Source of the DNA: Actinomycetota bacterium
Lineage (GTDB): Bacteria; Actinomycetota; Thermoleophilia; Gaiellales; Gaiellaceae
Assembly: GCA_005888315.1 (NCBI GenBank)
Contig: VAWH01000022.1
Location: forward strand, 869-64,868
Length of the DNA stretch: 64,000 bases
Reading direction: 5' to 3'
Shown here: piece by piece, positions 1 to 42,520 of the stretch
Layout: the number at the start of each line of letters is the position of its first letter
Position numbering within the stretch: the first letter of the stretch is position 1
Program-made: the position numbers and the translations under genes
The notes under the pieces: generated by a model
Told to the model about the DNA's origin: nothing
The model's database searches: none
The model's input: only the letters and a program-made list of their open reading frames with translations

Positions 1-633
1 GAGGATCTCCGGCGTGCTCTTGTAGATACCGAGGCCGTTCGGCTGGCCGAACGGATCGTTCGGGTCGTACGCGAGGCTCGCCGCGTAGACGGAGTCGCAG
101 CCCGCCGGAATGAAGTCGACAGGGTCGCCGCCCGAGGGAACCTGGTGCGGCGAGGCGATCTTCGTCAAGGTGACCGGGGGCAACAGCCCTTCGTTGCGCA
201 CCGAGTGGCCGCCGTCGGTCGACCACTCCCAACCCGTGAAATTGCCTTCGGGGTCGATCAGCCCTCGATAGTCGTTCGTGCCCTCGAGAACGAAGTTGTC
301 GTTCGACGCGCAGACACCGACGGACTCCTCGTTCTGCGGCAGGCCGAAGATGTCGCAGTTGAAGACGTCCTTGTTCGCGTTGCTCGTACAGCTGTTGACG
401 TTGCGCGCCGGCGGTTGCTTCTGCGAGCCGCTCAGCTGCGCGAACCGCGTCGGCGCCTCCGCCGGGTGCCGCGCCCAGTAATTGGCCGAAACCGACTGGG
501 ATAGGTGCTCGAGGAACGCCTCGGGCACCTTCCCGCCCTCGACCGCCGTCGCGGCCGGTACGGCGACGATCACGAGCGCAGCGAGCGCCAGCAGCGCAGC
601 GCCGAGGCGCCACGCGTGAAATGGTCGAACCAT
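1..633 (-). CDS. Secreted BNR/Asp-box (sialidase-like) protein, N-terminal part. The gene continues past the left edge of the window.
   Basis: ATG at 633-631 preceded by GGGGAGGAGGGG. Hand translation gives MVRPFHAWRLGAALLALAALVIVAVPAATA (signal peptide) ... NDYRGLIDPEGNFTGWEWSTDGGHSV. It aligns with the N-terminal module of the 1250..3247 protein (NDYRRGDGTCGTSWSTDGGRTW). It is absent from the ORF track because there is no stop codon in the window. Confidence 0.7.
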   Translation of the reverse strand, partial: MVRPFHAWRLGAALLALAALVIVAVPAATAVEGGKVPEAFLEHLSQSVSANYWARHPAEAPTRFAQLSGSQKQPPARNVNSCTSNANKDVFNCDIFGLPQNEESVGVCASNDNFVLEGTNDYRGLIDPEGNFTGWEWSTDGGHSVRNEGLLPPVTLTKIASPHQVPSGGDPVDFIPAGCDSVYAASLAYDPNDPFGQPNGLGIYKSTPEIL

Positions 634-779
634 GGATCCCCTCCTCCCCTGAGACTGTGAAGGCCGGAATTTAGCGTTTTGAAATCAGAAGGGCCGCCTC
701 GCGCACTTCGTCACATGGCCGTAGGGGTGCCGGGCGACGCGTCACGTTACGGTCCCGGCCCGTGGGGTATCGCACGAAC

Positions 780-1139
780 ATGGTTCGATTTGGCGCATTA
801 CTCCTGGCTGCGGTGACGATGGCCGCGGCGGCCGGAACTGCGGGTGCGGACGGCTCCGCGGCGACGAAGCCGGTGCTGCAGCTCGTTCAACGAGCGCCGC
901 TCAAGATCCGTGGGCTTCATTTCAAGGCCCGCGAACGCGTGCGGGTGACGGCCAGCACGACGAGTGGCCACGCGATTGTCATAACGCGTAGCACCCGGCT
1001 GGGGCGCTTCGTCGCTTTCTTCAGCCACTTCTCGGCGGCGGCTTGCCTCCGGCTGGTCGTTACCGCCGTCGGCGCGAAAGGCGACCGGGCGAAACTCGTG
1101 GTGAACCCACCACCCATGACGATTCCCTGCCCTCTCTGA
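780..1139 (+). CDS. Small secreted hypothetical protein
   Basis: ORF 762..1139. The internal ATG at 780 gives MVRFGALLLAAVTMAAAAGTAGA, a signal-peptide-like N-terminus. A strong hairpin follows. I recognise no family. Confidence 0.45.
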   Translation: MVRFGALLLAAVTMAAAAGTAGADGSAATKPVLQLVQRAPLKIRGLHFKARERVRVTASTTSGHAIVITRSTRLGRFVAFFSHFSAAACLRLVVTAVGAKGDRAKLVVNPPPMTIPCPL

Positions 1140-1197
1140 TTCAGAACGACCCAGGTGCCGCGTGCCCGGGCATCGGTCGCCGCAGCCAAGAAAACGT

Positions 1198-1223
1198 GAA
1201 GGGCCGCCCGGAAGCGGCCCTTC
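1198..1223. terminator. Bidirectional stem-loop between convergent genes
   Basis: GAAGGGCCGC-CCGGAA-GCGGCCCTTC, a perfect 10-bp stem between the stops at 1139 (+) and 1250 (-). Confidence 0.5.
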
Positions 1224-1249
1224 GTCGCTTTACGCCGTGACCGGCGCGT

Positions 1250-3247
1250 TTACTGCGAGGACGAAACCGACTGGTTCGCCGTGTAGGCCTCCTGATCGTT
1301 CAGGGTCGTTCCGAGCGTGGTGCCGCCGCATACAGCCGGAGTCGTGGACACACTCGCCGGACAGAGGAACAGGTCCGGGTTCCGGGTGTCGCTCCAGAAC
1401 GGATGGGCGAGCGTGTCGGCGTCGAGGCCAGCGTAGTCTCCGTAGAAGACACTGCCGGCGCTATTGCCGCCCTCCGGGAACTGAGTCGGGAATGGCATCG
1501 ACACGTTCGTGATCCGGTAGACGTTCCAACCAGCGTACGTGGGCGAGCCGCCCGACGACGAGAGGCTGATGTCGCTGTAGCCGGTCGCCTCATCGCTGCC
1601 GTACTGCCGGTCGTAGTACGACGTCGCCAGCTTGCCGGTCTTCGTGAACGCGATCCACTGCCAGAACTGATCGCTCGTGGCCTGGCCGGGATCGGTGGTC
1701 GCACTCGGCAGCGCCCGCGGGTCGGTGGTCGTGCCGGTGAAGCTGGCCCCACCGTTGTTCGAGACGCTGACCAGGATGTCGTTGTTGCATGCCCCCGGCG
1801 TTTTCACCCCGGTGTAGAGGTCCTGGCCGGTGGCCGGGCTGAAGCCGGTCGGGGCACACCCGTTCGACTCCTTCGAGTGCTGGTTGATGTACGACCCGAA
1901 CGTGACGACGACCTGGTTCGGATTGGTCGGGTTCACCTCACCGGAGCCGTAGTTCGTCGCCCGGAAGATCGAGTTCGCGGTCGCGTTCTTCTCCGGCACG
2001 CAGGCGCGGCCGAAGTCGTGGCCCTGCTGGTACGTCGCGCAGTCGGGCAGGTCGTAGTAGTCCGAAACCTTGACGGGGTTCGAGAAGGTGTTCCCGCCGT
2101 CCACCGACTTCGAGAGCAGGATCTGGTTGCGGTTGTCCGGAGTGTTCCCCAACGTCTCGGGGTTGTTGAAGTTGTTGTAGATGACGTAGAGGGCACCGTC
2201 CTTGCCGACGAACGGCTGCGAGAACTGGTTCTCGTTGCAGCTGCTGGCCGTGCCCAGCCCGTAATCGTTCGGGCAGAGCGAGCTGTTCAGGCTGACGAGA
2301 TGCCTCGGCGAGAAGTGCTCGCCGTAATCGGACGAGTACGCCTCGTAGATGAACGCCGAGCCGTTCGGCGCGAACTCCGTCCAGGTGACGTAGATCCGAT
2401 CCTGGAACGGCGTGCACGTCGAGCCCGGGTTCACCGTCGTCGGCGAGCCGGCGCACGCGTTCGAGTTGTTGTCGACCGCCATGAACTGCTTGTCCTCGAG
2501 GGGCAGGAAACTCCTCTGGACGCCGGTCTCGAAGACGGGCCGGCCCGTGAAGTTCCACGACGCGCCGCCGTTCTGCGTCGAGCGAAAGACGAAGAAGCCG
2601 CTCGCCCGACCCGGAATGTCCGCCGCGGTTGCCGGCCCTCGCTGGAAGAGCTGACACGAGAGGTACGCGTTGCCCTTCGAGTCCCAGGCGACGGAGGTAT
2701 CCCCGCCGGCCTCCCAGTAGATGCGAGGCGCGACTCCCGTAGTGGGGTTCCGTGTGAAGTTGTTCGGGACGGTCGAGTCGTTCCATGTCCGGCCGCCGTC
2801 AGTGCTCCACGACGTGCCGCACGTGCCGTCGCCGCGGCGGTAGTCGTTGTAGCTCGCAACGAGGTGCTGCGTGTGGTTCGGATCGACCGAGATCGAGGTC
2901 TCGTTCTGAGCCTGTCCGCGTCCCTGAAGATTAGGGTCGGTCAGGTTGAGGCAGTTCTGGTTGACCTTGATGTTCGAGCTGACGTTGTTCGTACAGTCGC
3001 CGCTGCCTCGCGGGACGTACGTGTCCGGGTTGGTCGGATTCCCCGGGTTGTCGTTCCCGGTCTTGCCGAGCTCGAACGCGGCGAAGCCTGAGATCAGGCG
3101 TTCCTGTTCGTCGTTCAACTCGTCGTCGATACCAAGCTGACCGGCGTGCGCACTAGTCACGCGTGTGGTCGAGCCGCCGATACCGGCGAACATGATTGCC
3201 ACTCCGAGCGCTACAAGGGCCAGGAGCAGCGCGACAGGTCGTCGCAT
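1250..3247 (-). CDS. Secreted BNR/Asp-box repeat protein (sialidase/glycosyl-hydrolase-like beta-propeller)
   Basis: Signal peptide MRRPVALLLALVALGVAIMFAG. Multiple Asp-box motifs (SxDxGxTW type): WSTDGGRTW, TQNGGASW, SVDGGNTF, SNNGGASF. Confidence 0.85.
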   Translation of the reverse strand: MRRPVALLLALVALGVAIMFAGIGGSTTRVTSAHAGQLGIDDELNDEQERLISGFAAFELGKTGNDNPGNPTNPDTYVPRGSGDCTNNVSSNIKVNQNCLNLTDPNLQGRGQAQNETSISVDPNHTQHLVASYNDYRRGDGTCGTSWSTDGGRTWNDSTVPNNFTRNPTTGVAPRIYWEAGGDTSVAWDSKGNAYLSCQLFQRGPATAADIPGRASGFFVFRSTQNGGASWNFTGRPVFETGVQRSFLPLEDKQFMAVDNNSNACAGSPTTVNPGSTCTPFQDRIYVTWTEFAPNGSAFIYEAYSSDYGEHFSPRHLVSLNSSLCPNDYGLGTASSCNENQFSQPFVGKDGALYVIYNNFNNPETLGNTPDNRNQILLSKSVDGGNTFSNPVKVSDYYDLPDCATYQQGHDFGRACVPEKNATANSIFRATNYGSGEVNPTNPNQVVVTFGSYINQHSKESNGCAPTGFSPATGQDLYTGVKTPGACNNDILVSVSNNGGASFTGTTTDPRALPSATTDPGQATSDQFWQWIAFTKTGKLATSYYDRQYGSDEATGYSDISLSSSGGSPTYAGWNVYRITNVSMPFPTQFPEGGNSAGSVFYGDYAGLDADTLAHPFWSDTRNPDLFLCPASVSTTPAVCGGTTLGTTLNDQEAYTANQSVSSSQ

Positions 3248-3384
3248 TTCTTCCCCCTAACGTTTCCTCTGGCGGCCGCCCATTCGACCGCGGTCGCGGA
3301 TCATAGGACTGTGGCTTGTAAACGACAAATCGGAACCGACCGCAGCCCGCGTCTCACGGCCCAAGTGGGCCCTATTAGAAGCTT

Positions 3385-5151
3385 CTAGGGCGCGATAGCG
3401 GCGCCCGCATCGACCAGGCCTGTCCCGTACGCGTCCGCAAACGGAATCGAGACCGAGGTGTCGAGGTGGCAATAACCGGTCGCGCACGGCCGGCCGTCGT
3501 AGGTCGGACTCGTATTGTCGGGATCGTCCGGACCCGTGAAGTTCGTCATCGTCTGCCGGGCTGTCGCCTGGAGCCGAGCGATGAGACCGGGGGGATCATG
3601 GCGCAGCCCCGGCTTCGCCGAGATAACGAGCGCGGCGACACCAAGCGCGTTCGGCGCCGACATCGAGGTGCCTTGCAGCCAGCCGAAGCCGTTCCCCTCG
3701 ACCTTGAAGCAGGCGAAGTTGAACAGCGAAGACTGGAGCGGGTCACGACAGATGAGGCCGCTTTCGGCCAAGGCGCCGAGCGAGCCCCAGCCGCCGTAAA
3801 GGATGTTGCCGGCGCCGCCGTCCCAGCCGGGGAGGTTGAAGCGGCGCGCGCCGCCGGGGGCGGCCACGTCGACCCGCGGTCCGTAGCTCGAGTAGTAGGC
3901 GAGCTGGTCGCGGGCGCCGACGTGGAGGCCGAGCGCGAAAGGATCGTCCGCCGGCGCGGCGCCGTTGCCGTTATTCGTGGCCGAGACCATGACGACGCCG
4001 GGAACGCCCGCCGGCGCCTCGAGCAATCCGCGCAGGTCGAAGTCCGCGGAGTCGGCGCCAGGCGGGGTGGTGCCGATCCCGTCCGCGCCGTTCGAGACCC
4101 GGCCCACATCGCTCAGGGCTCGGCCGCCGACGGTCGTCATCACCCGCTCGACCCGGACGTGCTCGTTCCCGGCCGCCGCGAAGATCGTGACGCCCCGCGC
4201 GCGGCAGTACCGGACTGCGTCGTCGAAGAGGAGATACGTCTGTGCGTCGGCGGGGTCGCTCGGATCGAGATAACCCGTGATCGACATGTTCACGAGGTCG
4301 ACGTCGTCCGAGCAGGCCGCGACCAGTCCGGCGAGCAGCCAGTCCGGCAGCGCGCCGAAGCCGGCGGCGAGAACCTTGTAACTCGAGACTTGTATGCGGG
4401 GCGCCACACCGTTCGAGGCGAAGCCGTTCAGGTTTCCCGCGATCCGGCTTGCGACCCAGGTGCCGTGGCCTTCCCTGTCGTCTGTCCCGCAGTCGGTCAG
4501 ACCCACCTGCTTGAGCAAATTTTCGCCGTACTGACGCCGGAGCGCGTCGCACGCGACGAATGACTGCGGCTTACCGGCGACGTTGTCTTTGAGCTCCTTG
4601 TGTGACTGCTCGACGCCCGAGTCGAGAACGGCGACGCGGACGCTCGCGTCTCCCAACGTCTTCGTCCATGCGGCGGGCACGTTCATACGGGCGTCGTCCC
4701 ACTGGAGGATTCCCTCGGGATTGGTCACGCCGAGGAACGACGAGGCGTCGTGCCACGGGTCGGGAGATGAAGTCGTCGCCCTGCCGAAAGCCAACGGGCC
4801 GACGGAGCTGCCACCGTCGCTGCTGTCGCGGCCTAGAGGTGCGTCGAACAGCGGCTCCCTGAAAGCGTCGATGACGCGCGCGTTTGCAGCGATCCGGCCG
4901 CGAAAGTCCCGCGCCACCGGCGCGACCGCAAGCGCGCCGACGGGGCTGAGGTCGGTAACGACACTCCCGCCTGCGCTTACGACCGCCGCCTGCATCTGCG
5001 CCGGCGTCGTGCCGCTCGAGAAGCGCACGATCGTGATCCCGAATGGGTTCGGCCCGCTCTTTGCGTAAGCAGGAGCCGCAACGAGGAACGCCGCGAGGCA
5101 AACGAAGGAGAGAACGAGCCGCTTCACCGCACCCAAAACTGTCGGCAGCAT
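3385..5151 (-). CDS. Secreted S8 family (subtilisin-like) serine protease
   Basis: Signal peptide followed by the catalytic triad motifs VAVLDSGV (Asp), GHGTWVAS (His) and GTSMSAPNALGVAAL (Ser). Confidence 0.9.
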   Translation of the reverse strand: MLPTVLGAVKRLVLSFVCLAAFLVAAPAYAKSGPNPFGITIVRFSSGTTPAQMQAAVVSAGGSVVTDLSPVGALAVAPVARDFRGRIAANARVIDAFREPLFDAPLGRDSSDGGSSVGPLAFGRATTSSPDPWHDASSFLGVTNPEGILQWDDARMNVPAAWTKTLGDASVRVAVLDSGVEQSHKELKDNVAGKPQSFVACDALRRQYGENLLKQVGLTDCGTDDREGHGTWVASRIAGNLNGFASNGVAPRIQVSSYKVLAAGFGALPDWLLAGLVAACSDDVDLVNMSITGYLDPSDPADAQTYLLFDDAVRYCRARGVTIFAAAGNEHVRVERVMTTVGGRALSDVGRVSNGADGIGTTPPGADSADFDLRGLLEAPAGVPGVVMVSATNNGNGAAPADDPFALGLHVGARDQLAYYSSYGPRVDVAAPGGARRFNLPGWDGGAGNILYGGWGSLGALAESGLICRDPLQSSLFNFACFKVEGNGFGWLQGTSMSAPNALGVAALVISAKPGLRHDPPGLIARLQATARQTMTNFTGPDDPDNTSPTYDGRPCATGYCHLDTSVSIPFADAYGTGLVDAGAAIAP

Positions 5152-6408: not shown

Positions 6409-7068
6409 ATGACTGAGCTTCCGCTCGCGCCTCCGGCCGCTGCGACGACGGCGCTCGCCGCAAGTGAGCGTGCCCTGCTCGTACGGCGCGCCCGCCTGCT
6501 TGCCTGGAGCGGAAACGCCTGGCACCTGATCGAGTTTGCGATCGCGGTTGGCGCCGGACTTGCCGCCGGCTCGATCGCATTGATCGGGTTCGGCTTCGAC
6601 AGCCTGATCGAGGCCGCGGCCGGTGGAGTGATCGTCTGGCGCTTCGCCGCCCCGCGTAGCAGCTCGGAGCACGCCGAACGGCGCGCTCAGCAGCTGATCG
6701 CGGCGACCTACTTCTTGCTCGCGATCTATGTCGGCGAGGAATCTGTCCGGACATTGGCCGCCGGCAGCCACCCACGAGCGAGCTGGGTCGGAATCGGCCT
6801 GGCCGCCTTCACGGCTCCGACAATGCCGCTGCTCGCGCGTGCGAAGCGGTGCGTTGGCTCGAGACTCAACTCGAGCGCAACCGTCAGCGAGGCGACGCAG
6901 AACATGGTTTGCGCCTACCTCTCGGTGGCATTGCTTGCGGGGCTCGGGACGAACGCGTTCTTGGGCTGGTGGTGGGCCGATCCAGCCGCGGCACTCGTGA
7001 TCGGCGCGGTTGCCTTTCGCGAAGGCTGCGAGACCTGGCAGGGCGAGAGCTGTTGCGATGTCTGCTAA
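6409..7068 (+). CDS. Cation-efflux (CDF-like) membrane protein. It has the transmembrane domain only, with a Cys-rich tail.
   Basis: SIALIGFGFDSLIE and WWADPAAAL resemble the CDF TM2/TM5 metal-site motifs. At about 219 aa it lacks the usual cytoplasmic domain. The tail is CETWQGESCCDVC. Confidence 0.6.
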   Translation: MTELPLAPPAAATTALAASERALLVRRARLLAWSGNAWHLIEFAIAVGAGLAAGSIALIGFGFDSLIEAAAGGVIVWRFAAPRSSSEHAERRAQQLIAATYFLLAIYVGEESVRTLAAGSHPRASWVGIGLAAFTAPTMPLLARAKRCVGSRLNSSATVSEATQNMVCAYLSVALLAGLGTNAFLGWWWADPAAALVIGAVAFREGCETWQGESCCDVC

Positions 7069-34429: not shown

Positions 34430-35119
34430 TCACACGGAATCAGCGTCCGTTTGCGCGGCTGGCTCTACGCTGCCGTCGCGGAGCCGGAGCACGCGGTCAG
34501 CCTGCTGGCTCACGGACTGGTCGTTCGTGACCAACAGCACCGTCATCCGACGCTGGTCCCGCAACCGCAGCAGCAGCTGCAGGATCTCACCGCTCGTGTC
34601 GGAATCGAGCGCGCCGGTCGGCTCGTCGGCGAGCAGCAGCCGCGGCTCGTTCGCGAGCGCCCGCGCGATCGCGACGCGTTGGCGCTCGCCGCCCGAGAGG
34701 GTCGTCGGCGACGAGTCGAGCCGCTCCGCGAGCCCAACCTCTTCGAGCAGCGCCCGCGACCGGCGCTCTCGGTCGCGCCTGGCGACGCCGCGCCCGATCA
34801 TCGGGATCTGCACGTTCTCCGCCGCCGAGAGCGTCGGAATCAGGTTGTGGAACTGAAAGACGAACCCAACGGTCGCGGCGCGGTATTCGGCCGCGTCGAG
34901 ACGCGAAAGTTCCTCGCCGCCGACCACAATCGAGCCCGCGTCCGGCCGGTCGAGTGCGCCGATCAGGTTCAAAAGCGTGCTCTTGCCAGAACCTGAAGGG
35001 CCGGTCAGCGCCACGAAGTCGCCGGCGGCGAGCCGCAGCGAAACCGCGGACAGTGCGCCGATGCGACCGCCCTCGAAGGTCTTGCTAACCCCGTCGAGGA
35101 CGACGTCGACACCGCTCAC
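34430..35119 (-). CDS. ABC transporter ATP-binding protein (MacB/LolD type)
   Basis: The GTG at 35119 overlaps the upstream TGA (GTGA). Walker A GPSGSGKST, signature LSGGERQRV, Walker B LLLADEPT. Confidence 0.9.
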   Translation of the reverse strand: MSGVDVVLDGVSKTFEGGRIGALSAVSLRLAAGDFVALTGPSGSGKSTLLNLIGALDRPDAGSIVVGGEELSRLDAAEYRAATVGFVFQFHNLIPTLSAAENVQIPMIGRGVARRDRERRSRALLEEVGLAERLDSSPTTLSGGERQRVAIARALANEPRLLLADEPTGALDSDTSGEILQLLLRLRDQRRMTVLLVTNDQSVSQQADRVLRLRDGSVEPAAQTDADSV

Positions 35120-40085: not shown

Positions 40086-40247
40086 GTGCTTCTTCTCATC
40101 CTGCTTGCAATCCTGGCAATCATCCTGTTCGGCGTCGGCTTCACGGTCCACTGGCTCTTCATCCTTGCGATCGTCGCCGCGCTGCTCTTCGTGATCAGCT
40201 TCTTCATGGGCGCCGCCGGGGGCCGTTCACGCGGCGCTTGGTGGTAG
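40086..40247 (+). CDS. 53-aa two-TM hydrophobic micro-protein (not in the ORF track)
   Basis: AAAGGAGG lies 8 nt before the GTG. VLLLILLAILAIILFGVGFTVHWLFILAIVAALLFVISFFMGAAGGRSRGAWW. GC-rich third positions. Hairpin downstream. Confidence 0.5.
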   Translation: MLLLILLAILAIILFGVGFTVHWLFILAIVAALLFVISFFMGAAGGRSRGAWW

Positions 40248-40276: not shown

Positions 40277-40307
40277 GGTCCGGGGCTTTGCAAAAAGGCC
40301 CCGGACC
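40277..40307. terminator. Stem-loop after the 53-aa ORF
   Basis: GGTCCGGGGC-TTTGCAAAAAG-GCCCCGGACC. A degenerate family-1 5' module (GGGCGCTCGCTCGCGACGCCGAC) follows at about 40310-40332. Confidence 0.5.
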
Positions 40308-40398
40308 CTGGGCGCTCGCTCGCGACGCCGACAGAAAGGCCGCGGCTGGAAACGACGGATCCGCTGTTGCAGACTCTGCGTCGGAGAGCGAGCCGCTT

Positions 40399-40557
40399 CT
40401 AGAGCAGCATCAACCAGCTGCGCCCGCAAGCGCGGCACTGGTGGTTCTTCCGCCCGCAGCGGCGGCAGTCCCAGTACGTCCACCAGATCCACTTGAGGTG
40501 GTTGATCTCGATGACGAACAGGACGACGATCCAGAGGAGTGCGACGGTTCGGTCCAT
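40399..40557 (-). CDS. 52-aa membrane-anchored CxxC...CxxC micro-protein (not in the ORF track)
   Basis: MDRTVALLWIVVLFVIEINHLKWIWWTYWDCRRCGRKNHQCRACGRSWLMLL. Almost every third position is G or C. The overlapping 197-aa track ORF is R/P-rich shadow. Confidence 0.45.
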   Translation of the reverse strand: MDRTVALLWIVVLFVIEINHLKWIWWTYWDCRRCGRKNHQCRACGRSWLMLL

Positions 40558-40614
40558 GCTTCAGCTTCGTCATCTTGAAGGCCTAGCGCAAGGGCCGGTC
40601 GGCCCATTTCCTTG

Positions 40615-40989
40615 TCACGCGCGGGCTAGTTCGGCGACCCGCCGCGCGATGTCGTCGCGCAGCTCGCGCACCTCTTCGAGGCAGAGCCCCGCAGGATCGA
40701 CGAGGTTCCAATCGATGTACGTCTTGCCGGGTAGCACCGGACAGGCGTCGCCACAGCCCATCGTCACGACAACATCGGCCCAGGCCACGTCCTCGTTGGT
40801 AATCGGTTTGGGATTGCGCCCGGCCAGGTCGATGTCGAGCTCTTCGAGGGCCTCGACAACGGCCTGGTGGAGCTCGGCTTCGGGACGCGAGCCCGCCGAG
40901 CGCGCCTCGCCGCCGAGCCGCTCGTACAGCGCCTGTGCCATCTGCGACCGGCCGGCGTTGCCGATGCAGACGAAATACGCGCGCCTCAC
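40615..40989 (-). CDS. arsC: Arsenate reductase, LMW-PTP (thioredoxin/mycoredoxin-coupled) type
   Basis: The GTG at 40989 overlaps the arsR TGA (GTGA). CX5R loop FVCIGNAGRS and TMGCGDACP. Confidence 0.9.
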   Translation of the reverse strand: MRRAYFVCIGNAGRSQMAQALYERLGGEARSAGSRPEAELHQAVVEALEELDIDLAGRNPKPITNEDVAWADVVVTMGCGDACPVLPGKTYIDWNLVDPAGLCLEEVRELRDDIARRVAELARA

Positions 40990-41372
40990 GAGGCCACCGC
41001 CCGCTCGCGCGTGACGAGAGCGCCTTCGGGTACGGGACCGCCGCCGATTGCGAAGGCGAGCTGCTCCATCGCCTCGGGAACGAGCCGGTAGAACGTCCAC
41101 GTCCCGCGCCTGCGCGCGACCTCGATCAGCCCGGCCTCCTTGAGGACGCGCAGATGGTGCGACACCGTCGGCTGCGAGAGGCCAAGCGGTGCGGTGAGCT
41201 GGCACGTGCAGACCTCACCCGCACCCGCGATTCGGTTGACGATCGACACGCGCGCCGGGTCGGAGAGCGCTTTGAACCGCTCCGCCAGCGCCCTCGCGGA
41301 GCCTTTGGCAAGCGGCGGAGCCCCCGGTGCGCAGCACGGCTGCTCGAGAACGCGAAGCTCTTTCATTGACAC
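40986..41372 (-). CDS. arsR: ArsR/SmtB family metalloregulator
   Basis: wHTH region QPTVSHHLRVLKEAGL. Alpha-3 Cys motif EVCTCQL. N-terminal CC pair (EQPCCAPG). Confidence 0.9.
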   Translation of the reverse strand: MSMKELRVLEQPCCAPGAPPLAKGSARALAERFKALSDPARVSIVNRIAGAGEVCTCQLTAPLGLSQPTVSHHLRVLKEAGLIEVARRRGTWTFYRLVPEAMEQLAFAIGGGPVPEGALVTRERAVAS

Positions 41373-41381
41373 CCATCAATG
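41364..41381. promoter_or_regulatory. Candidate ArsR operator (inverted repeat)
   Basis: CATTGA-CACCCA-TCAATG overlaps the arsR start codon region, in the 57-nt divergent spacer. Confidence 0.3.
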
Positions 41382-41429
41382 TATCAGTTACGGTTTCCTG
41401 CATCGACAACCTTCGATGAAGGGAGGCAC

Positions 41430-41489
41430 ATGGCGGCTTGTGACTGCGATTGCGGCGGCGACTGTTGCGGCACCGGAGGCTGCTGCTGA
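41430..41489 (+). CDS. 19-aa cysteine-rich micro-ORF (metallothionein-like peptide or leader)
   Basis: GAAGGGAGG-CAC-ATG. MAACDCDCGGDCCGTGGCC then TGA. 7 of 19 residues are Cys. Third positions are mostly G/C. Divergent from arsR. Confidence 0.4.
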   Translation: MAACDCDCGGDCCGTGGCC

Positions 41490-41596
41490 TCAACTCGCCT
41501 GCCCGCGAGGGTGGCGCCGCCCTTGCGGGCCCCAGTGCCGGTCGAACTCGGGGCCGCTCTCTCGCCCCGGACAGGGCCCGCTCGGACGGGGCGCGA

Positions 41597-42520
41597 TCAG
41601 ACGTTGAAGCGAATGTTGAGCACATCCCCGTCTTCGACAACGTAGTCCTTTCCTTCGAGCCGTTGCCGGCCTCGCCTCACGACCTCCGCGCGAGAGCCCG
41701 CCTCGACGAGGTCTTTCCAGGGGATCACCTCGCAGCGGATGAAACCGCGAGCGATGTCGGTGTGGATCGTCGCCGCGGCCTCCAGAGCGGTCTGTCCTCG
41801 CCGCAGTGGCCACGCCCGGGTCTCGTTCTCGGCCGCGGTGAAGAACGAGATCAGGTCGACCGCCTCGAACAGCCGCCGCGCGATCTCGCCGACGGCACCC
41901 GGCTCTCCCTCGCGGAAGGCCGCAGCCTCCCCCTCAGGCAGCTCGGAGAGCTCCGCCTCGAGCTTTGCGTCCAGACCGCGCGGCCCGTTGTGGACCTCGA
42001 TCAAGGGCTTCGTCGTCAGCGGCTCGAGCCCGGGCGGCAGCTCGCCGGGCCACTCCGAGAGTGGTCGCTCGGCCTCCAGGTGAGCGAGTATCGCCTCGAG
42101 CTGCTCCACCTCGGCGCGCAATTGCGGGGCGCCTGACTTCGCCTGCTTTCGGACGCGCTCGAGCCGCCGCTCCACGTGGTCGCGATCGGCGATCAGCAGC
42201 TCGAGCCGGAGCGTGACCAGGTCGTCGTCCGGATTTCGCGTCCCCGACCAGGCATCGAGAACGACGAGCAGGGCATCGACTTGGCGAAGGTTCCCGAGCA
42301 GTTGCGCTCCGGTGCCCGGTACGTCGACCACGCGCACGGCGGCAGGCGTGATCTTCTTCGCGTTCTCGACCGCAGCGACCGGCTCCAGGCGCTCGTCCGG
42401 AATCGTCGCCATGCCCACGTTCTCTTTCCCCGGCACGGACGACCCGGTTCGGGTGAGCGCCTTGAAGAGCGTCGTCTTGCCGGAATTGGGCAGGCCGACA
42501 ATGCCGACCGAAAGAGCCAT
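41597..42520 (-). CDS. ychF: YchF/Obg-like ATPase (short form)
   Basis: G1 motif GIVGLPNSGKTTLF. The C-terminal TGS-like RAWPLRRGQTALEAAATIHTDIARGFIR...VEDGDVLNIRFNV. Confidence 0.85.
   Translation of the reverse strand: MALSVGIVGLPNSGKTTLFKALTRTGSSVPGKENVGMATIPDERLEPVAAVENAKKITPAAVRVVDVPGTGAQLLGNLRQVDALLVVLDAWSGTRNPDDDLVTLRLELLIADRDHVERRLERVRKQAKSGAPQLRAEVEQLEAILAHLEAERPLSEWPGELPPGLEPLTTKPLIEVHNGPRGLDAKLEAELSELPEGEAAAFREGEPGAVGEIARRLFEAVDLISFFTAAENETRAWPLRRGQTALEAAATIHTDIARGFIRCEVIPWKDLVEAGSRAEVVRRGRQRLEGKDYVVEDGDVLNIRFNV

Follow-up and report, generated by a model that had tools for sequence, protein, structure and literature searches.

A cysteine-dense micro-ORF divergent from an ArsR-family repressor gene in soil actinobacteria most likely encodes a very small metal(loid)-trapping peptide

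The window analysed here, a stretch of 64,000 nucleotides from a bacterium of the Gaiellaceae, contains a micro-ORF with seven Cys among its 19 residues, lying divergently from the gene of an ArsR/SmtB repressor (Table 1). Its position and translation, as given in the initial annotation, agree with the sequence, and the G/C-rich third codon positions reported there are borne out (14 of 19 codons end in G or C). The repressor gene, arsR, is followed by an arsC-like gene, the GTG start of which overlaps the arsR stop codon (GTGA); on the other side, the micro-ORF converges with ychF. The 52-aa ORF beyond arsC, previously pointed out as a second micro-protein, is a real conserved gene. As judged by conservation, arsR starts at the ATG at 41366 and not at the GTG at 41372, since relatives share the beginning MK[EK]LRVLEQPCC; the two divergent start codons are therefore 63 nt apart, and the gap of 57 nt first proposed has to be corrected.

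Table 1. Coordinates of genes and predicted signals at the arsR/micro-ORF locus (positions within the window)
Feature	Position	Strand	Remarks
52-aa ORF	40399..40557	-	76-100% identical in relatives
ArsC-like LMW-PTP gene (arsC)	40615..40989	-	CX5R loop CIGNAGRS; MGCGDACP
arsR	40986..41366	-	ArsR/SmtB repressor, 126 aa; Pfam HTH_5, 3e-16
O1	41364..41381		palindrome CATTGA-N6-TCAATG; predicted main ArsR operator
Predicted micro-ORF promoter	41366..41394	+	-35 TTGACA, 17-nt spacer, -10 TACGGT
Micro-ORF -35	41366..41371	+	TTGACA; read from sequence and relatives' loci
Predicted arsR -10	41378..41386	-	TGATACATT, with TGn extension; 11 nt upstream of arsR ATG
Micro-ORF -10	41389..41394	+	TACGGT, TAnnnT type; read from sequence and relatives' loci
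O2	41401..41418		palindrome CATCGA-N6-TCGATG; predicted second ArsR operator
Shine-Dalgarno	41418..41426	+	GAAGGGAGG; 3 nt upstream of micro-ORF ATG
Micro-ORF	41430..41489	+	ATG, 18 sense codons, TGA; encodes MAACDCDCGGDCCGTGGCC
GC-rich hairpin 3' of micro-ORF	41497..41530	+	-32.4 kcal/mol, z = -2.8
ychF	41597..42520	-	redox-regulated ATPase; TIGR00092, 187 bits; convergent with micro-ORF

The Shine-Dalgarno sequence of the micro-ORF takes the form GAAAGGAGG in most relatives. Complementarity to the 3' end of 16S rRNA extends over 8-10 nt in 44 of 55 distinct family members, against usually 5 nt or less in the other genes of the window. An ATG inside O2, upstream of the micro-ORF, was rejected as start codon, being out of frame in the window and without a Shine-Dalgarno sequence. 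When the window was scanned for ORFs of 10-45 aa with at least five Cys and at least 30% Cys, two were obtained, the micro-ORF itself and an ORF on the minus strand (34590..34543) that is devoid of a Shine-Dalgarno sequence; 200 second-order Markov shuffles of the window gave none. A chance ORF, one of the readings initially entertained, is ruled out by this result.

Relatives of the locus were retrieved through ArsR alone, without use of the micro-ORF. A Cys/Asp/Gly micro-ORF of 13-20 aa is present in 10 of the 11 relatives at species level. Absence or a shifted frame in close relatives had been set beforehand as the outcome that would speak against the ORF, and the opposite was found, the frame being kept in these 10 relatives. 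A metagenome scan added 79 copies (56 distinct peptides of 9-23 aa, from 120 contigs), retrieved with a pattern that demanded a GGAG motif and M-x-x-CDCDC, so that both features are circular within the metagenome set. About 40 of the 120 pattern matches were unrelated, and comprised microsatellites, longer proteins and eukaryote-like DNA such as L100. With its frame intact in the genome relatives and in 79 contigs from metagenomes, the micro-ORF is a true coding gene that is conserved in many soil actinobacteria. The peptide is dispensable, because locus L010 has lost the ORF and retains arsR-arsC. None of the distant ArsR loci L012-L080 has a Cys-rich micro-ORF, and the family therefore appears restricted to the present actinobacterial clade. 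The partner ArsR has over 4,000 relatives in the metagenome protein set; the ArsR protein search did not extend the phyletic range, all of the matches listed being at least 79% identical.

Across the family, the peptides consist of about 48% Cys, 22% Asp and 15% Gly, with CxC and CC motifs. In the first 64 members analysed, Cys content was 37-55% and the majority end in CC. The number of Cys (6-11) and the length (9-23 aa) both vary freely. Tyr occurs only at position 2, in a few members, and His, which the window peptide does not contain, is found at position 2 only, in some relatives. The initial annotation had proposed to look for conservation of Cys codons with synonymous drift. This was observed: most differences between close relatives are synonymous or consist of whole codons gained or lost, and the length differences among relatives correspond to whole codons or CD units. 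The same peptide is encoded by different codons in L007/L143/L149, in L081/L135 and in L096/L136. Differences between close pairs at codon positions 1/2/3 numbered 2/0/9, 9/12/23 and 21/22/48 at rising divergence cut-offs, an excess at position 3 with p of about 1e-3 to 1e-4 for pairs that are not independent. The excess vanished (169/153/171) when every pair of equal length differing by at most 25% was included, because repeat units are misaligned at such divergence.

These data bear on the possibility that the locus makes no functional peptide, and that a (TGCGAC)n repeat, functioning at the level of DNA or RNA, for example within an operator, a terminator or a small RNA, is open by accident. 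The sequence is indeed of low complexity and repeat-like, the copy number of its 6-nt unit differs between relatives, and the peptides are absent from protein databases. However, such an element would not be expected to keep a start codon, an 8-10 nt Shine-Dalgarno, a fixed spacing and an in-frame stop down to about 50% ArsR identity, nor to carry the non-repeat linkers SGG, GTGG and GEG in frame. Cys codons are confined to one frame, with 413 TGY triplets in frame vs 21 and 6 in the other two, and where close relatives differ, the substitutions are synonymous. Rfam gave only a meaningless sub-threshold match for 40300..41700, and the folding of the micro-ORF region is unremarkable (z = -0.8). 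Taken together, an accidental reading frame in a repeat is considered highly improbable.

Known families did not account for the peptides. Pfam hmmscan at E<=10 assigned no family to two 20-aa members or to the 36-aa extended window ORF, NCBIfam gave no match for six family members, and a PDB sequence search with family members gave none either. Ten related or extended family sequences are all absent from a collection of 15 billion proteins, and the literature consulted, mostly outside subscription journals, does not describe such peptides.

The description of the partner regulator as an ArsR/SmtB protein with an N-terminal CC pair and an alpha-3 CTC motif stands. Besides its Pfam match, the protein scores 94 bits against NCBIfam HTH_metalloreg (cut-off 55), with the CC pair at residues 11-12 and the Cys of the CTC motif at residues 53 and 55. 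These four Cys are invariant in 42 distinct ArsR orthologues, and together they have the layout of an alpha-3N thiolate sensor, with Cys in the N-terminal arm and an alpha-3 CxC; there is no alpha-5 site, as alpha-5 His, Asp or Glu is not present. Among PDB entries, 6J0E matched best; this is CgArsR, an As(III) repressor, and the CC pair aligns to its Cys15/16, which lie in an ECC motif. Opposite the Cys of the CgArsR 'GCG' (Cys55, type 3 site) the query has Ala/Gly, and its CxC lies a few residues further on, at the canonical alpha-3 position. Of the type 1 CxCxxC site of R773, only CxC is found (VCTCQL), the third position being Leu/Phe in orthologues. The best NCBIfam equivalog-type match is to the Rv2640c family, followed by a weak similarity to CmtR. 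The nearest outgroup ArsR with CC and CVC motifs (L012) heads an arsI/cadI - arsR - MIP - arsC cluster. CxC and CC motifs are both known As(III) sites of ArsR proteins (PMC11868830), and alpha-3N sensors favour thiophilic ions (PMC8790569). The protein thus shares the ArsR/SmtB fold family with CgArsR, R773 ArsR and CadC-type sensors, its alpha-3 CxC occupying the position of R773 Cys32/34 and CadC Cys58/60 (PMC11868830). It differs from CgArsR and R773 ArsR in joining both motifs, without R773 Cys37 and without an exact equivalent of CgArsR Cys55, and from all three in that its predicted target is a micro-peptide gene instead of an efflux pump.

The linkage between the two genes is tight. In 69 of the 79 metagenome copies, arsR lies within 400 nt of the micro-ORF, divergently in 68 and co-directionally in one; seven of the remaining 10 copies have no upstream sequence. 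The divergent layout is also found in nine of the 10 ORF-bearing genome relatives, and the linkage persists where ychF is not adjacent, for instance in L107 and L081. In L144, the peptide gene lies 3' of arsR with overlapping stop and start codons (GTGA), and two palindromes precede arsR. Elsewhere, arsR is monocistronic in many lineages, and the peptide is therefore its only local target in them. ychF, a vWA-like gene, EamA and SDR are variable neighbours, and arsR alone is constant next to the ORF. A RiPP precursor was also considered and ruled out, as no RiPP maturase or transporter is conserved nearby.

The initial annotation had described an arsR-arsC pair with no arsenite pump, and this holds in part. 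The arsC-like gene is there, and its product has a CX5R loop and a CGDAC pair, with a score of 61 bits against the NCBIfam arsenate reductase equivalog (cut-off 174). Neither ArsB nor Acr3 occurs among the Pfam-tested neighbours, which include EamA, an HD/OB nuclease, a sigma factor and a CDF protein 35 kb away. The arrangement is not conserved, though: arsC follows arsR in 32 of 55 judgeable metagenome loci (58%), where it is translationally coupled to arsR as in the window, and it is absent in the other 23. It is likewise absent in L001, L002, L004 and L005, and in several such relatives ArsR is 84-90% identical. The conserved unit is arsR plus the micro-ORF, and arsC is accessory.

The spacer contains two palindromes, O1 and O2, which are the only ones of their type in the 64 kb, against 0.02 expected; in the loci of relatives, such palindromes are also confined to the arsR/micro-ORF spacer. 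The inverted repeat CATTGA-N6-TCAATG noted previously is thus present in the spacer region, although it overlaps the arsR start and is not single, O2 being a second copy of the type. O1 shares bases with three elements, namely the arsR start codon, the predicted micro-ORF -35 and the predicted arsR -10, and almost all family loci have retained it, even L010, where the micro-ORF has been lost. O2 abuts the Shine-Dalgarno of the micro-ORF, at or just after its predicted transcription start, and occurs in close relatives and several distant ones. In L001, an IS element is inserted at the position of O2. Position and conservation suggest that ArsR presumably binds both palindromes.

The promoter motif TTGAC[AG]-17-TA[CG]NNT is conserved in front of the micro-ORF across loci with ArsR at only 55-70% identity, and its -35 and -10 place the predicted transcription start about 29 nt upstream of the initiation codon. 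Being of the actinobacterial TAnnnT type, the micro-ORF -10 escaped a generic TATAAT-based sigma-70 scan, which gave no promoter. On the opposite strand, the element at 41378..41386 would be the -10 of the arsR promoter, for which the form TAYATT is kept in relatives.

Downstream, the micro-ORF is followed by a hairpin. Relatives have hairpins of 10-14 bp and unrelated sequence at the same site (z = -3.8 to -6.5), and the hairpin is likely a terminator common to the micro-ORF and the convergent ychF. In L005 and L011, the stop codons of the two genes even use common bases. No same-strand gene follows the micro-ORF in any locus inspected, where the hairpin is succeeded by a convergent gene; the micro-ORF is monocistronic.

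This layout is decisive against the earlier suggestion of a Cys-codon leader peptide, in which ribosomes would stall on Cys codons when Cys-tRNA is scarce and thereby control a cis-linked gene. Polycysteine sORF attenuators are known in actinobacteria, where the mycobacterial Ms5788A and Rv0815A are leaderless, lie 5' of cysteine-metabolism operons and work through ribosome stalling and an RNA duplex (10.1101/834739). The micro-ORF resembles these sORFs in being an unannotated actinobacterial frame with extreme Cys-codon content, dense up to the terminal CC or CCC. Unlike them, it is not leaderless, having a long and strong Shine-Dalgarno and a 5' UTR as predicted from the promoter motif, and it does not lie 5' of a co-directional operon. 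The leader reading is contradicted because beyond the micro-ORF come only the hairpin and the convergent ychF, leaving no co-directional gene to control. In addition, there are no cysteine-metabolism genes among the neighbours, and Asp and Gly are conserved alongside Cys. The suggestion was accordingly discarded, and we give it hardly any credence.

The resemblance to SmtB-smtA, where a metalloregulator is divergent from a metallothionein, had been proposed from the window and extends to the family, in which a short spacer with ArsR-type palindromes separates the micro-ORF from the gene of an ArsR/SmtB repressor. In the cyanobacterial pairs SmtB-SmtA and BxmR-BmtA, a repressor of this class is divergent from a small Cys-rich product, with one or two inverted repeats as operators in the common promoter region that overlap promoter elements (PMC7387436, PMC8790569). 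The differences lie in the parts. SmtA and BmtA are zinc-finger-like proteins of about 55 aa with Cys9His2 and a Pfam model, while the peptides here have 9-23 aa, no fold and no His ligands; neither a match to the Pfam profile Metallothio_Pro (BmtA/SmtA) nor its 50-56 aa Cys9His2 fold is found in them. The sensor here has an alpha-3N four-Cys site and no alpha-5 His/Asp/Glu, and instead of the 12-2-12 repeat of the SmtB-SmtA operator there are half-sites of 5-6 bp with a 6-bp gap. In size and composition, the peptides do agree with the operational class of metallothioneins (low mass, at least about 15-30% Cys in CxC/CC and virtually no aromatics), as they contain 37-55% Cys; the metal-thiolate clusters and metal-inducible expression typical of this class would be expected of them.

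A second likeness is to the phytochelatins, (gamma-Glu-Cys)n-Gly, and the synthetic (Glu-Cys)n-Gly, in which Cys also alternates with an acidic residue, with Gly near the end, and which are of similar size (n = 2-11) and variable unit number. In plants, phytochelatins act downstream of arsenate reductase and complex As(III). They are made enzymatically from glutathione by phytochelatin synthase and contain gamma-peptide bonds, whereas the peptides here are ribosomal, with alpha-peptide bonds and no phytochelatin synthase; they use Asp instead of Glu and end in CC or CCC. The fungal family-8 Cu-metallothioneins (Neurospora crassa, about 25 aa and 7 Cys) are Cu(I)-specific, under transcriptional activators, and to our knowledge the smallest gene-encoded metallothioneins known. 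They share with the present peptides the CxC motifs, a Gly/Ser/Asp-rich composition and about seven Cys, and differ in being eukaryotic, longer and less dense in Cys; the Pfam scan gave no match to them.

Since no metallothionein model was matched, the function proposed for the peptide is drawn from composition and context. The micro-ORF is probably a stand-alone gene for an ArsR-repressed, metallothionein-like thiolate peptide that buffers As(III), possibly also Cd or Pb; the nature of the inducing ion and the capacity of the peptide to bind metal are both inferred. When no metal(loid) is present, a dimer of the divergent repressor would sit on the ATYGA-N6-TCRAT palindromes. Occupancy of O1 would mask the -35 of the peptide gene and the arsR start, and that of O2, where present, the start of the peptide transcript, so that both transcription units would be off. 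A thiophilic ion, As(III) being the likeliest and Cd(II) or Pb(II) possible, would bind the four invariant Cys and release the repressor from the DNA, and the very strong ribosome-binding site would then yield abundant peptide. The 6-11 thiolates of each peptide could chelate the ion in the cytosol, at about 2-3 As(III) per peptide if three sulfurs are used per As(III), and the system would reset as the free ion drops. Where arsC is in the arsR operon, arsenate might be reduced to As(III) and then captured, much as plants combine a reductase with phytochelatins. It speaks against the scheme that peptides as short as 9-23 residues could be rapidly turned over.

The assignment to arsenic is indirect, because arsC is absent in about 40% of relatives and there is no arsenite exporter nearby. 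With the same architecture and the same chelation, the ligand could instead be Cd(II), Pb(II), Zn(II) or Cu(I), in which case the repressor would be CadC/AztR/BxmR-like and arsC a passenger. The four-Cys alpha-3N site of ArsR suits Cd/Pb equally well. CxC-rich fungal metallothioneins of similar composition bind Cu(I), 23 of the 55 judgeable loci have no arsC, and the equivalog-type matches, Rv2640c and then weakly CmtR, point in the same direction, as does the Cd/Pb preference of alpha-3N sites (PMC8790569). Arsenic is favoured by the best solved relative of ArsR, an As(III) repressor to which the CC pair aligns, by the translational coupling of arsC to arsR in most judgeable loci, and by the outgroup L012, which has the same Cys signature in an ars cluster; Cd, Zn or Cu efflux genes were linked in none of the loci inspected. 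A ligand other than arsenic is therefore regarded as rather unlikely.

The peptide might also be something other than a trap, either a regulator or chaperone that carries metal(loid) to or from ArsR, or a thiol redox buffer or cysteine store under thiol-depleting stress. Its tight and exclusive linkage to the repressor, with one operon fusion by overlapping stop and start codons, and the frequent lack of another effector gene in the module would be in keeping with such a role, and ArsD, an As(III) chaperone, has vicinal Cys motifs similar to those of the peptide. However, the very strong Shine-Dalgarno suggests bulk and not stoichiometric production, and the free variation in length and Cys number is what would be expected of a capacity-type binder, not of a specific partner. 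We consider these roles improbable, and buffering by a thiolate peptide remains the preferred reading, in which the micro-ORF most likely encodes a very small, so far unannotated metal(loid)-trapping peptide.

A broader claim can be put forward only tentatively, namely that Gaiellales-type soil actinobacteria possess a hitherto unrecognised family of metal(loid)-binding peptides, ribosomal analogues of phytochelatin of the type (Cys-Asp)n-Gly-Gly-Cys-Cys, which would be the smallest gene-encoded ones known and would serve an As(III)-sensing ArsR as its dedicated, and often its only, effector. Should the peptide prove to bind metal(loid)s, it would represent a new metallothionein-like family, and the shortest gene-encoded one, that gene callers cannot detect. 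Intergenic regions beside metalloregulators merit scans for micro-ORFs. The peptides, e.g. AACDCDCGGDCCGTGGCC, are short enough for direct synthesis and binding studies, and the cassette of ArsR, O1-O2 and promoter is a compact candidate part for biosensors or bioremediation. According to a paper from 2025, ars operons are not known to contain a gene for intracellular sequestration (PMC12093948), and the micro-ORF would be a candidate for a gene of this type. The lineage in which the family is found is abundant in soil but has seldom been cultured. If the proposal is true, these bacteria would have a branch of arsenic sequestration, sometimes coupled to ArsC, instead of or besides efflux, and a ribosomal bacterial peptide would have converged with the phytochelatins of plants.

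Read directly, the window contains a 19-codon gene (hereafter the micro-ORF) whose product is MAACDCDCGGDCCGTGGCC, with the Shine-Dalgarno sequence GAAGGGAGG placed 3 nt before the ATG. The initial annotation had located it correctly, and had considered chance as one explanation. The micro-ORF and one other match emerged from a six-frame scan of the window that required a length of 10-45 aa, 5 or more Cys and a Cys content of 30% or higher, and the same scan found no comparable ORF in 200 second-order Markov shuffles of the window, which argues against chance. The other match, MRSCSCCCGCGTSVG (34590..34543, minus strand), lacks a Shine-Dalgarno sequence, is nested in a longer ORF of that strand and probably arose by chance in GC-rich DNA. 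The micro-ORF is very probably a real, selected coding gene.

Relatives were retrieved from GTDB species genomes using the ArsR protein, not the peptide, as query. Relatives with the same spacer do keep the ORF: in nine of the 11 close loci (ArsR 72-90% identical), a Cys-rich micro-ORF lies in the same place, flanked by arsR and the end of ychF. The products, such as MACCDCDCGGGCC, MAKCDCGCDCDCDCEGGCCC, MAACDCDCDCSGGCCC and MHCCDCDCGCDCDCC, have 13-20 aa and 6-9 Cys, and each of the nine genes is preceded by GAAAGGAGG or GAAAGGAGC. In the tenth locus, L001, an IS1595-family insertion of 2.7 kb, bounded by 39-nt terminal inverted repeats, has displaced the micro-ORF. In L010 it was lost by deletion; arsR (with the predicted operator O1) and arsC are kept, and the spacer runs directly into the ychF stop codon (about 2930..3005), with TGCTGC as the only remnant. 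This natural loss indicates that the peptide is dispensable in at least one lineage. The L001 element (204..2970) is inserted in the predicted operator O2, between arsR and the micro-ORF, and carries a DDE transposase and a ParE/Phd-like pair. It also contains a second, inverted micro-ORF copy (293..340, MRCCDCDCECCGGCC), so the peptide gene appears able to travel as IS cargo. A Cys-rich micro-ORF is absent from all 69 of the more distant ArsR loci, which come from other phyla.

Metagenome contigs were scanned with the pattern GGAG-N4-8-RTG-N6-TGYGAYTGYGAYTGY, which fixes the Shine-Dalgarno core and M-x-x-CDCDC, and leaves free the short length, the Cys-rich C-terminal half and the genomic context. 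At least 120 contigs match; family micro-ORFs occur on 79 of the 120 listed, encoding 56 distinct peptides of 9-23 aa. Among the first 64 members analysed, composition without Met1 is 48% C, 22% D and 15% G, the Cys share per peptide is 37-55%, and 45 of 49 distinct peptides have CC at the C-terminal end.

Several features indicate translation as a peptide. An ATG or GTG start and an unusually long Shine-Dalgarno sequence are conserved across the family, with 8-10 nt complementary to the 16S rRNA 3' end in 44 of 55 distinct members, against 5 nt or fewer for most other window genes. An ATG within O2 was rejected as the start codon: some relatives have it in frame, but in the window it is out of frame. 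Identical peptides are encoded with different codons (TGT/TGC, GAT/GAC and GGN changes) in L007/L143/L149, L081/L135 and L096/L136, and length differences amount to whole codons or 6-nt Cys-Asp units. In close same-length pairs, excluding codons fixed by the search pattern, differences at codon positions 1/2/3 were 2/0/9, 9/12/23 and 21/22/48 at rising divergence cut-offs (binomial p about 1e-3 to 1e-4, the pairs not being independent). Of the TGY triplets, 413 are in frame, and 21 and 6 fall in the two alternative frames. With greater divergence the composition is retained although the exact peptide sequence drifts, which fits a capacity-type, low-complexity binder.

The micro-ORF is closely tied to arsR. 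Of the 79 metagenome copies, 69 have an arsR homologue (49-99% identical) no more than 400 nt away, divergent in 68 cases and co-directional in one; seven of the other 10 copies are at contig ends that lack upstream sequence, and no arsR was detected for three. The SmtB-smtA-like arrangement described in the initial annotation is thus borne out, with palindromes in the spacer. Although ychF adjoins the micro-ORF in 59 of the 79 copies, it lies elsewhere in L107, L081, L093 and L130, where arsR is still adjacent. In L144 (3447..3888), a 23-aa micro-ORF, MSECDCDCDCSSCDCSDCDCCKK, follows arsR, its GTG overlapping the arsR stop codon (GTGA); this ArsR is 49% identical, with DCC...CAC motifs, and two ATYGA-N6-TCRAT palindromes lie upstream of its gene. 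These loci identify arsR plus micro-ORF as the invariant pair. By comparison, arsC follows arsR in 32 metagenome loci, is absent in 23 and is undecidable in 14. Several relatives lack it even though their ArsR is 84-90% identical; there, a conserved 52-aa ORF directly follows arsR. More distant lineages with a micro-ORF have a monocistronic arsR, which leaves the peptide gene as the sole local target of the regulator. A 174-191 aa protein in L085 (8858..9433, minus strand) and L127, in a context unrelated to the arsR module, starts with MACCDCDCGDECCVCSCC, followed by a DNA-binding domain of the MazE/AbrB-like type, possibly as a fusion of a Cys-rich sensor domain to a regulator.

Other identities were considered. 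A Cys-codon leader peptide, proposed in the initial annotation, or an attenuator of the mycobacterial polycysteine type (10.1101/834739) would act on a co-directional downstream gene. There is none; instead, the micro-ORF is followed by a hairpin and convergent ychF. Hairpins of unrelated sequence (z = -3.8 to -6.5) follow the micro-ORF in relatives, and in L005 and L011 its stop codon shares bases with that of ychF, which also argues against a leader. A RiPP precursor was rejected because no conserved maturase was found near the micro-ORF in the loci inspected. A known RNA was ruled out for the region, and the peptides belong to no profiled metallothionein family.

Features of the arsR/micro-ORF locus and neighbouring ORFs (window coordinates)
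Feature	Position	Strand	Remarks
Cation diffusion facilitator	6409..7068	+	Pfam Cation_efflux, 31 bits
53-aa ORF	40086..40247	+	very hydrophobic
52-aa ORF	40399..40557	-	MDRTVALLWIVVLFVIEINHLKWIWWTYWDCRRCGRKNHQCRACGRSWLMLL
ArsC-like gene	40615..40989	-	LMW-PTP type; GTG start; below NCBIfam equivalog cut-offs
arsR	40986..41366	-	ArsR/SmtB repressor, 126 aa; divergent from micro-ORF
O1	41364..41381		CATTGA-N6-TCAATG; arsR start codon inside; palindrome of the initial annotation
Predicted micro-ORF -35	41366..41371		TTGACA; inside O1
Candidate extended -10 of arsR	41386..41378	other strand	TGATACATT; overlaps O1
Predicted micro-ORF -10	41389..41394		TACGGT
O2	41401..41418		CATCGA-N6-TCGATG; touches micro-ORF Shine-Dalgarno
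Micro-ORF	41430..41489	+	ATG GCG GCT TGT GAC TGC GAT TGC GGC GGC GAC TGT TGC GGC ACC GGA GGC TGC TGC TGA; read directly
GC-rich hairpin	41497..41530		downstream of micro-ORF; -32.4 kcal/mol, z = -2.8
ychF	41597..42520	-	convergent with micro-ORF; 3' end beyond hairpin

The inverted repeat noted initially in the shared spacer is present, but it is not alone and it includes the arsR start codon. O1 and O2 are the only two matches to the strict palindrome in 64 kb (0.02 expected), and the looser ATYGA-N6-TCRAT finds the same two sites (0.21 expected). In the fetched loci, the motif occurs in one or two copies, almost solely in the arsR/micro-ORF spacer. By-eye alignment of spacers shows a conserved TTGAC[AG]-17 nt-TA[CG]NNT, predicted to be a sigma-70/actinobacterial-type promoter of the micro-ORF, and TGATACATT could plausibly serve arsR as an extended -10 element. 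Given these positions, one dimer on O1 could shut both promoters, and a repressor bound at O2 might add a roadblock at the predicted micro-ORF transcript start. It is likely that the micro-ORF is controlled by the adjacent ArsR.

All 42 distinct micro-ORF-linked ArsR orthologues keep four Cys, in PCCxPGxPPL of the N-terminal arm and VC[TV]C of alpha-3, and an alpha-5 His/Asp/Glu site occurs in none of the 42. Among solved structures, the best match is the As(III) repressor CgArsR (6J0E, E = 4e-15), whose Cys15-Cys16 align with the CC pair of the window ArsR. The CxC is at the position of Cys32/34 in R773 ArsR, although the window protein, unlike R773 ArsR, has no Cys37 equivalent (PMC11868830). 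CadC/AztR-type sensors, which favour thiophilic Cd/Pb (PMC8790569), share this combination of N-terminal Cys and an alpha-3 CxC, known as the alpha-3N layout, and the ligand could be Cd/Pb instead of As(III). However, the nearest outgroup ArsR with the CC+CVC signature (52% identical; L012, a Dormibacterota genome) belongs to a cluster at 2499..4480, in which an operon of arsR, a MIP channel gene and an ArsC-like gene is divergent from an ArsI/CadI gene (NF041414, 178 bits; cut-off 116). This ars context and the frequent translational coupling of arsC tip the balance toward As(III). The L012 cluster has no micro-ORF, and its operator differs from the window type. That the peptide sequesters As(III) specifically can be proposed only tentatively.

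The surrounding DNA is chromosomal (69% G+C), with housekeeping genes including the nuo operon, ftsH and ychF, and its closest relatives are soil Gaiellaceae/Actinomycetota MAGs. The arsR stop and arsC start codons overlap as GTGA (40986..40989), implying translational coupling. As initially annotated, an ArsC-like gene is present, and no ArsB/Acr3 was seen among the window neighbours tested, which further included an EamA transporter, an HD/OB nuclease and an ECF-type sigma factor. The cation diffusion facilitator, 35 kb from the module, is the sole metal-efflux-type gene noticed in the window. The Cys-containing micro-protein also pointed out there, the 52-aa ORF, is a real conserved gene (76-100% identity in at least 14 relatives) with one hydrophobic helix, then CxxC-x7-CxxC, and no match in Pfam or NCBIfam. 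It could be part of the ArsR operon, since in loci without arsC it lies directly behind arsR on the same strand. The 53-aa ORF is kept in 17 relatives (81-100% identity), with weak similarity to DUF5326 only.

We propose that ArsR represses the micro-ORF, that a metal(loid) would derepress it, and that the thiolate-rich micro-peptide would then chelate the inducing ion; such sequestration is the probable mechanism. Where arsC is present, As(V) would be reduced and the As(III) then captured, as in the plant pathway, and the peptides resemble phytochelatins in their Cys/acidic alternation, Gly near the end and variable unit number. CxC and CC motifs, which bind As(III) in ArsR proteins (PMC11868830), also occur in the peptides. 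No description of such peptides was found in the literature searched, and according to a paper from 2025 (PMC12093948), ars operons contain no known sequestration gene. A collection of 15 billion proteins lacks all ten family sequences looked up; ArsR has more than 4,000 relatives at E <= 1e-20, the best 120 all at least 79% identical. The regulatory logic, that of SmtB-SmtA (PMC7387436), is already known. What is new is the effector, a family of extremely small peptides defined by their composition, from an abundant soil lineage.
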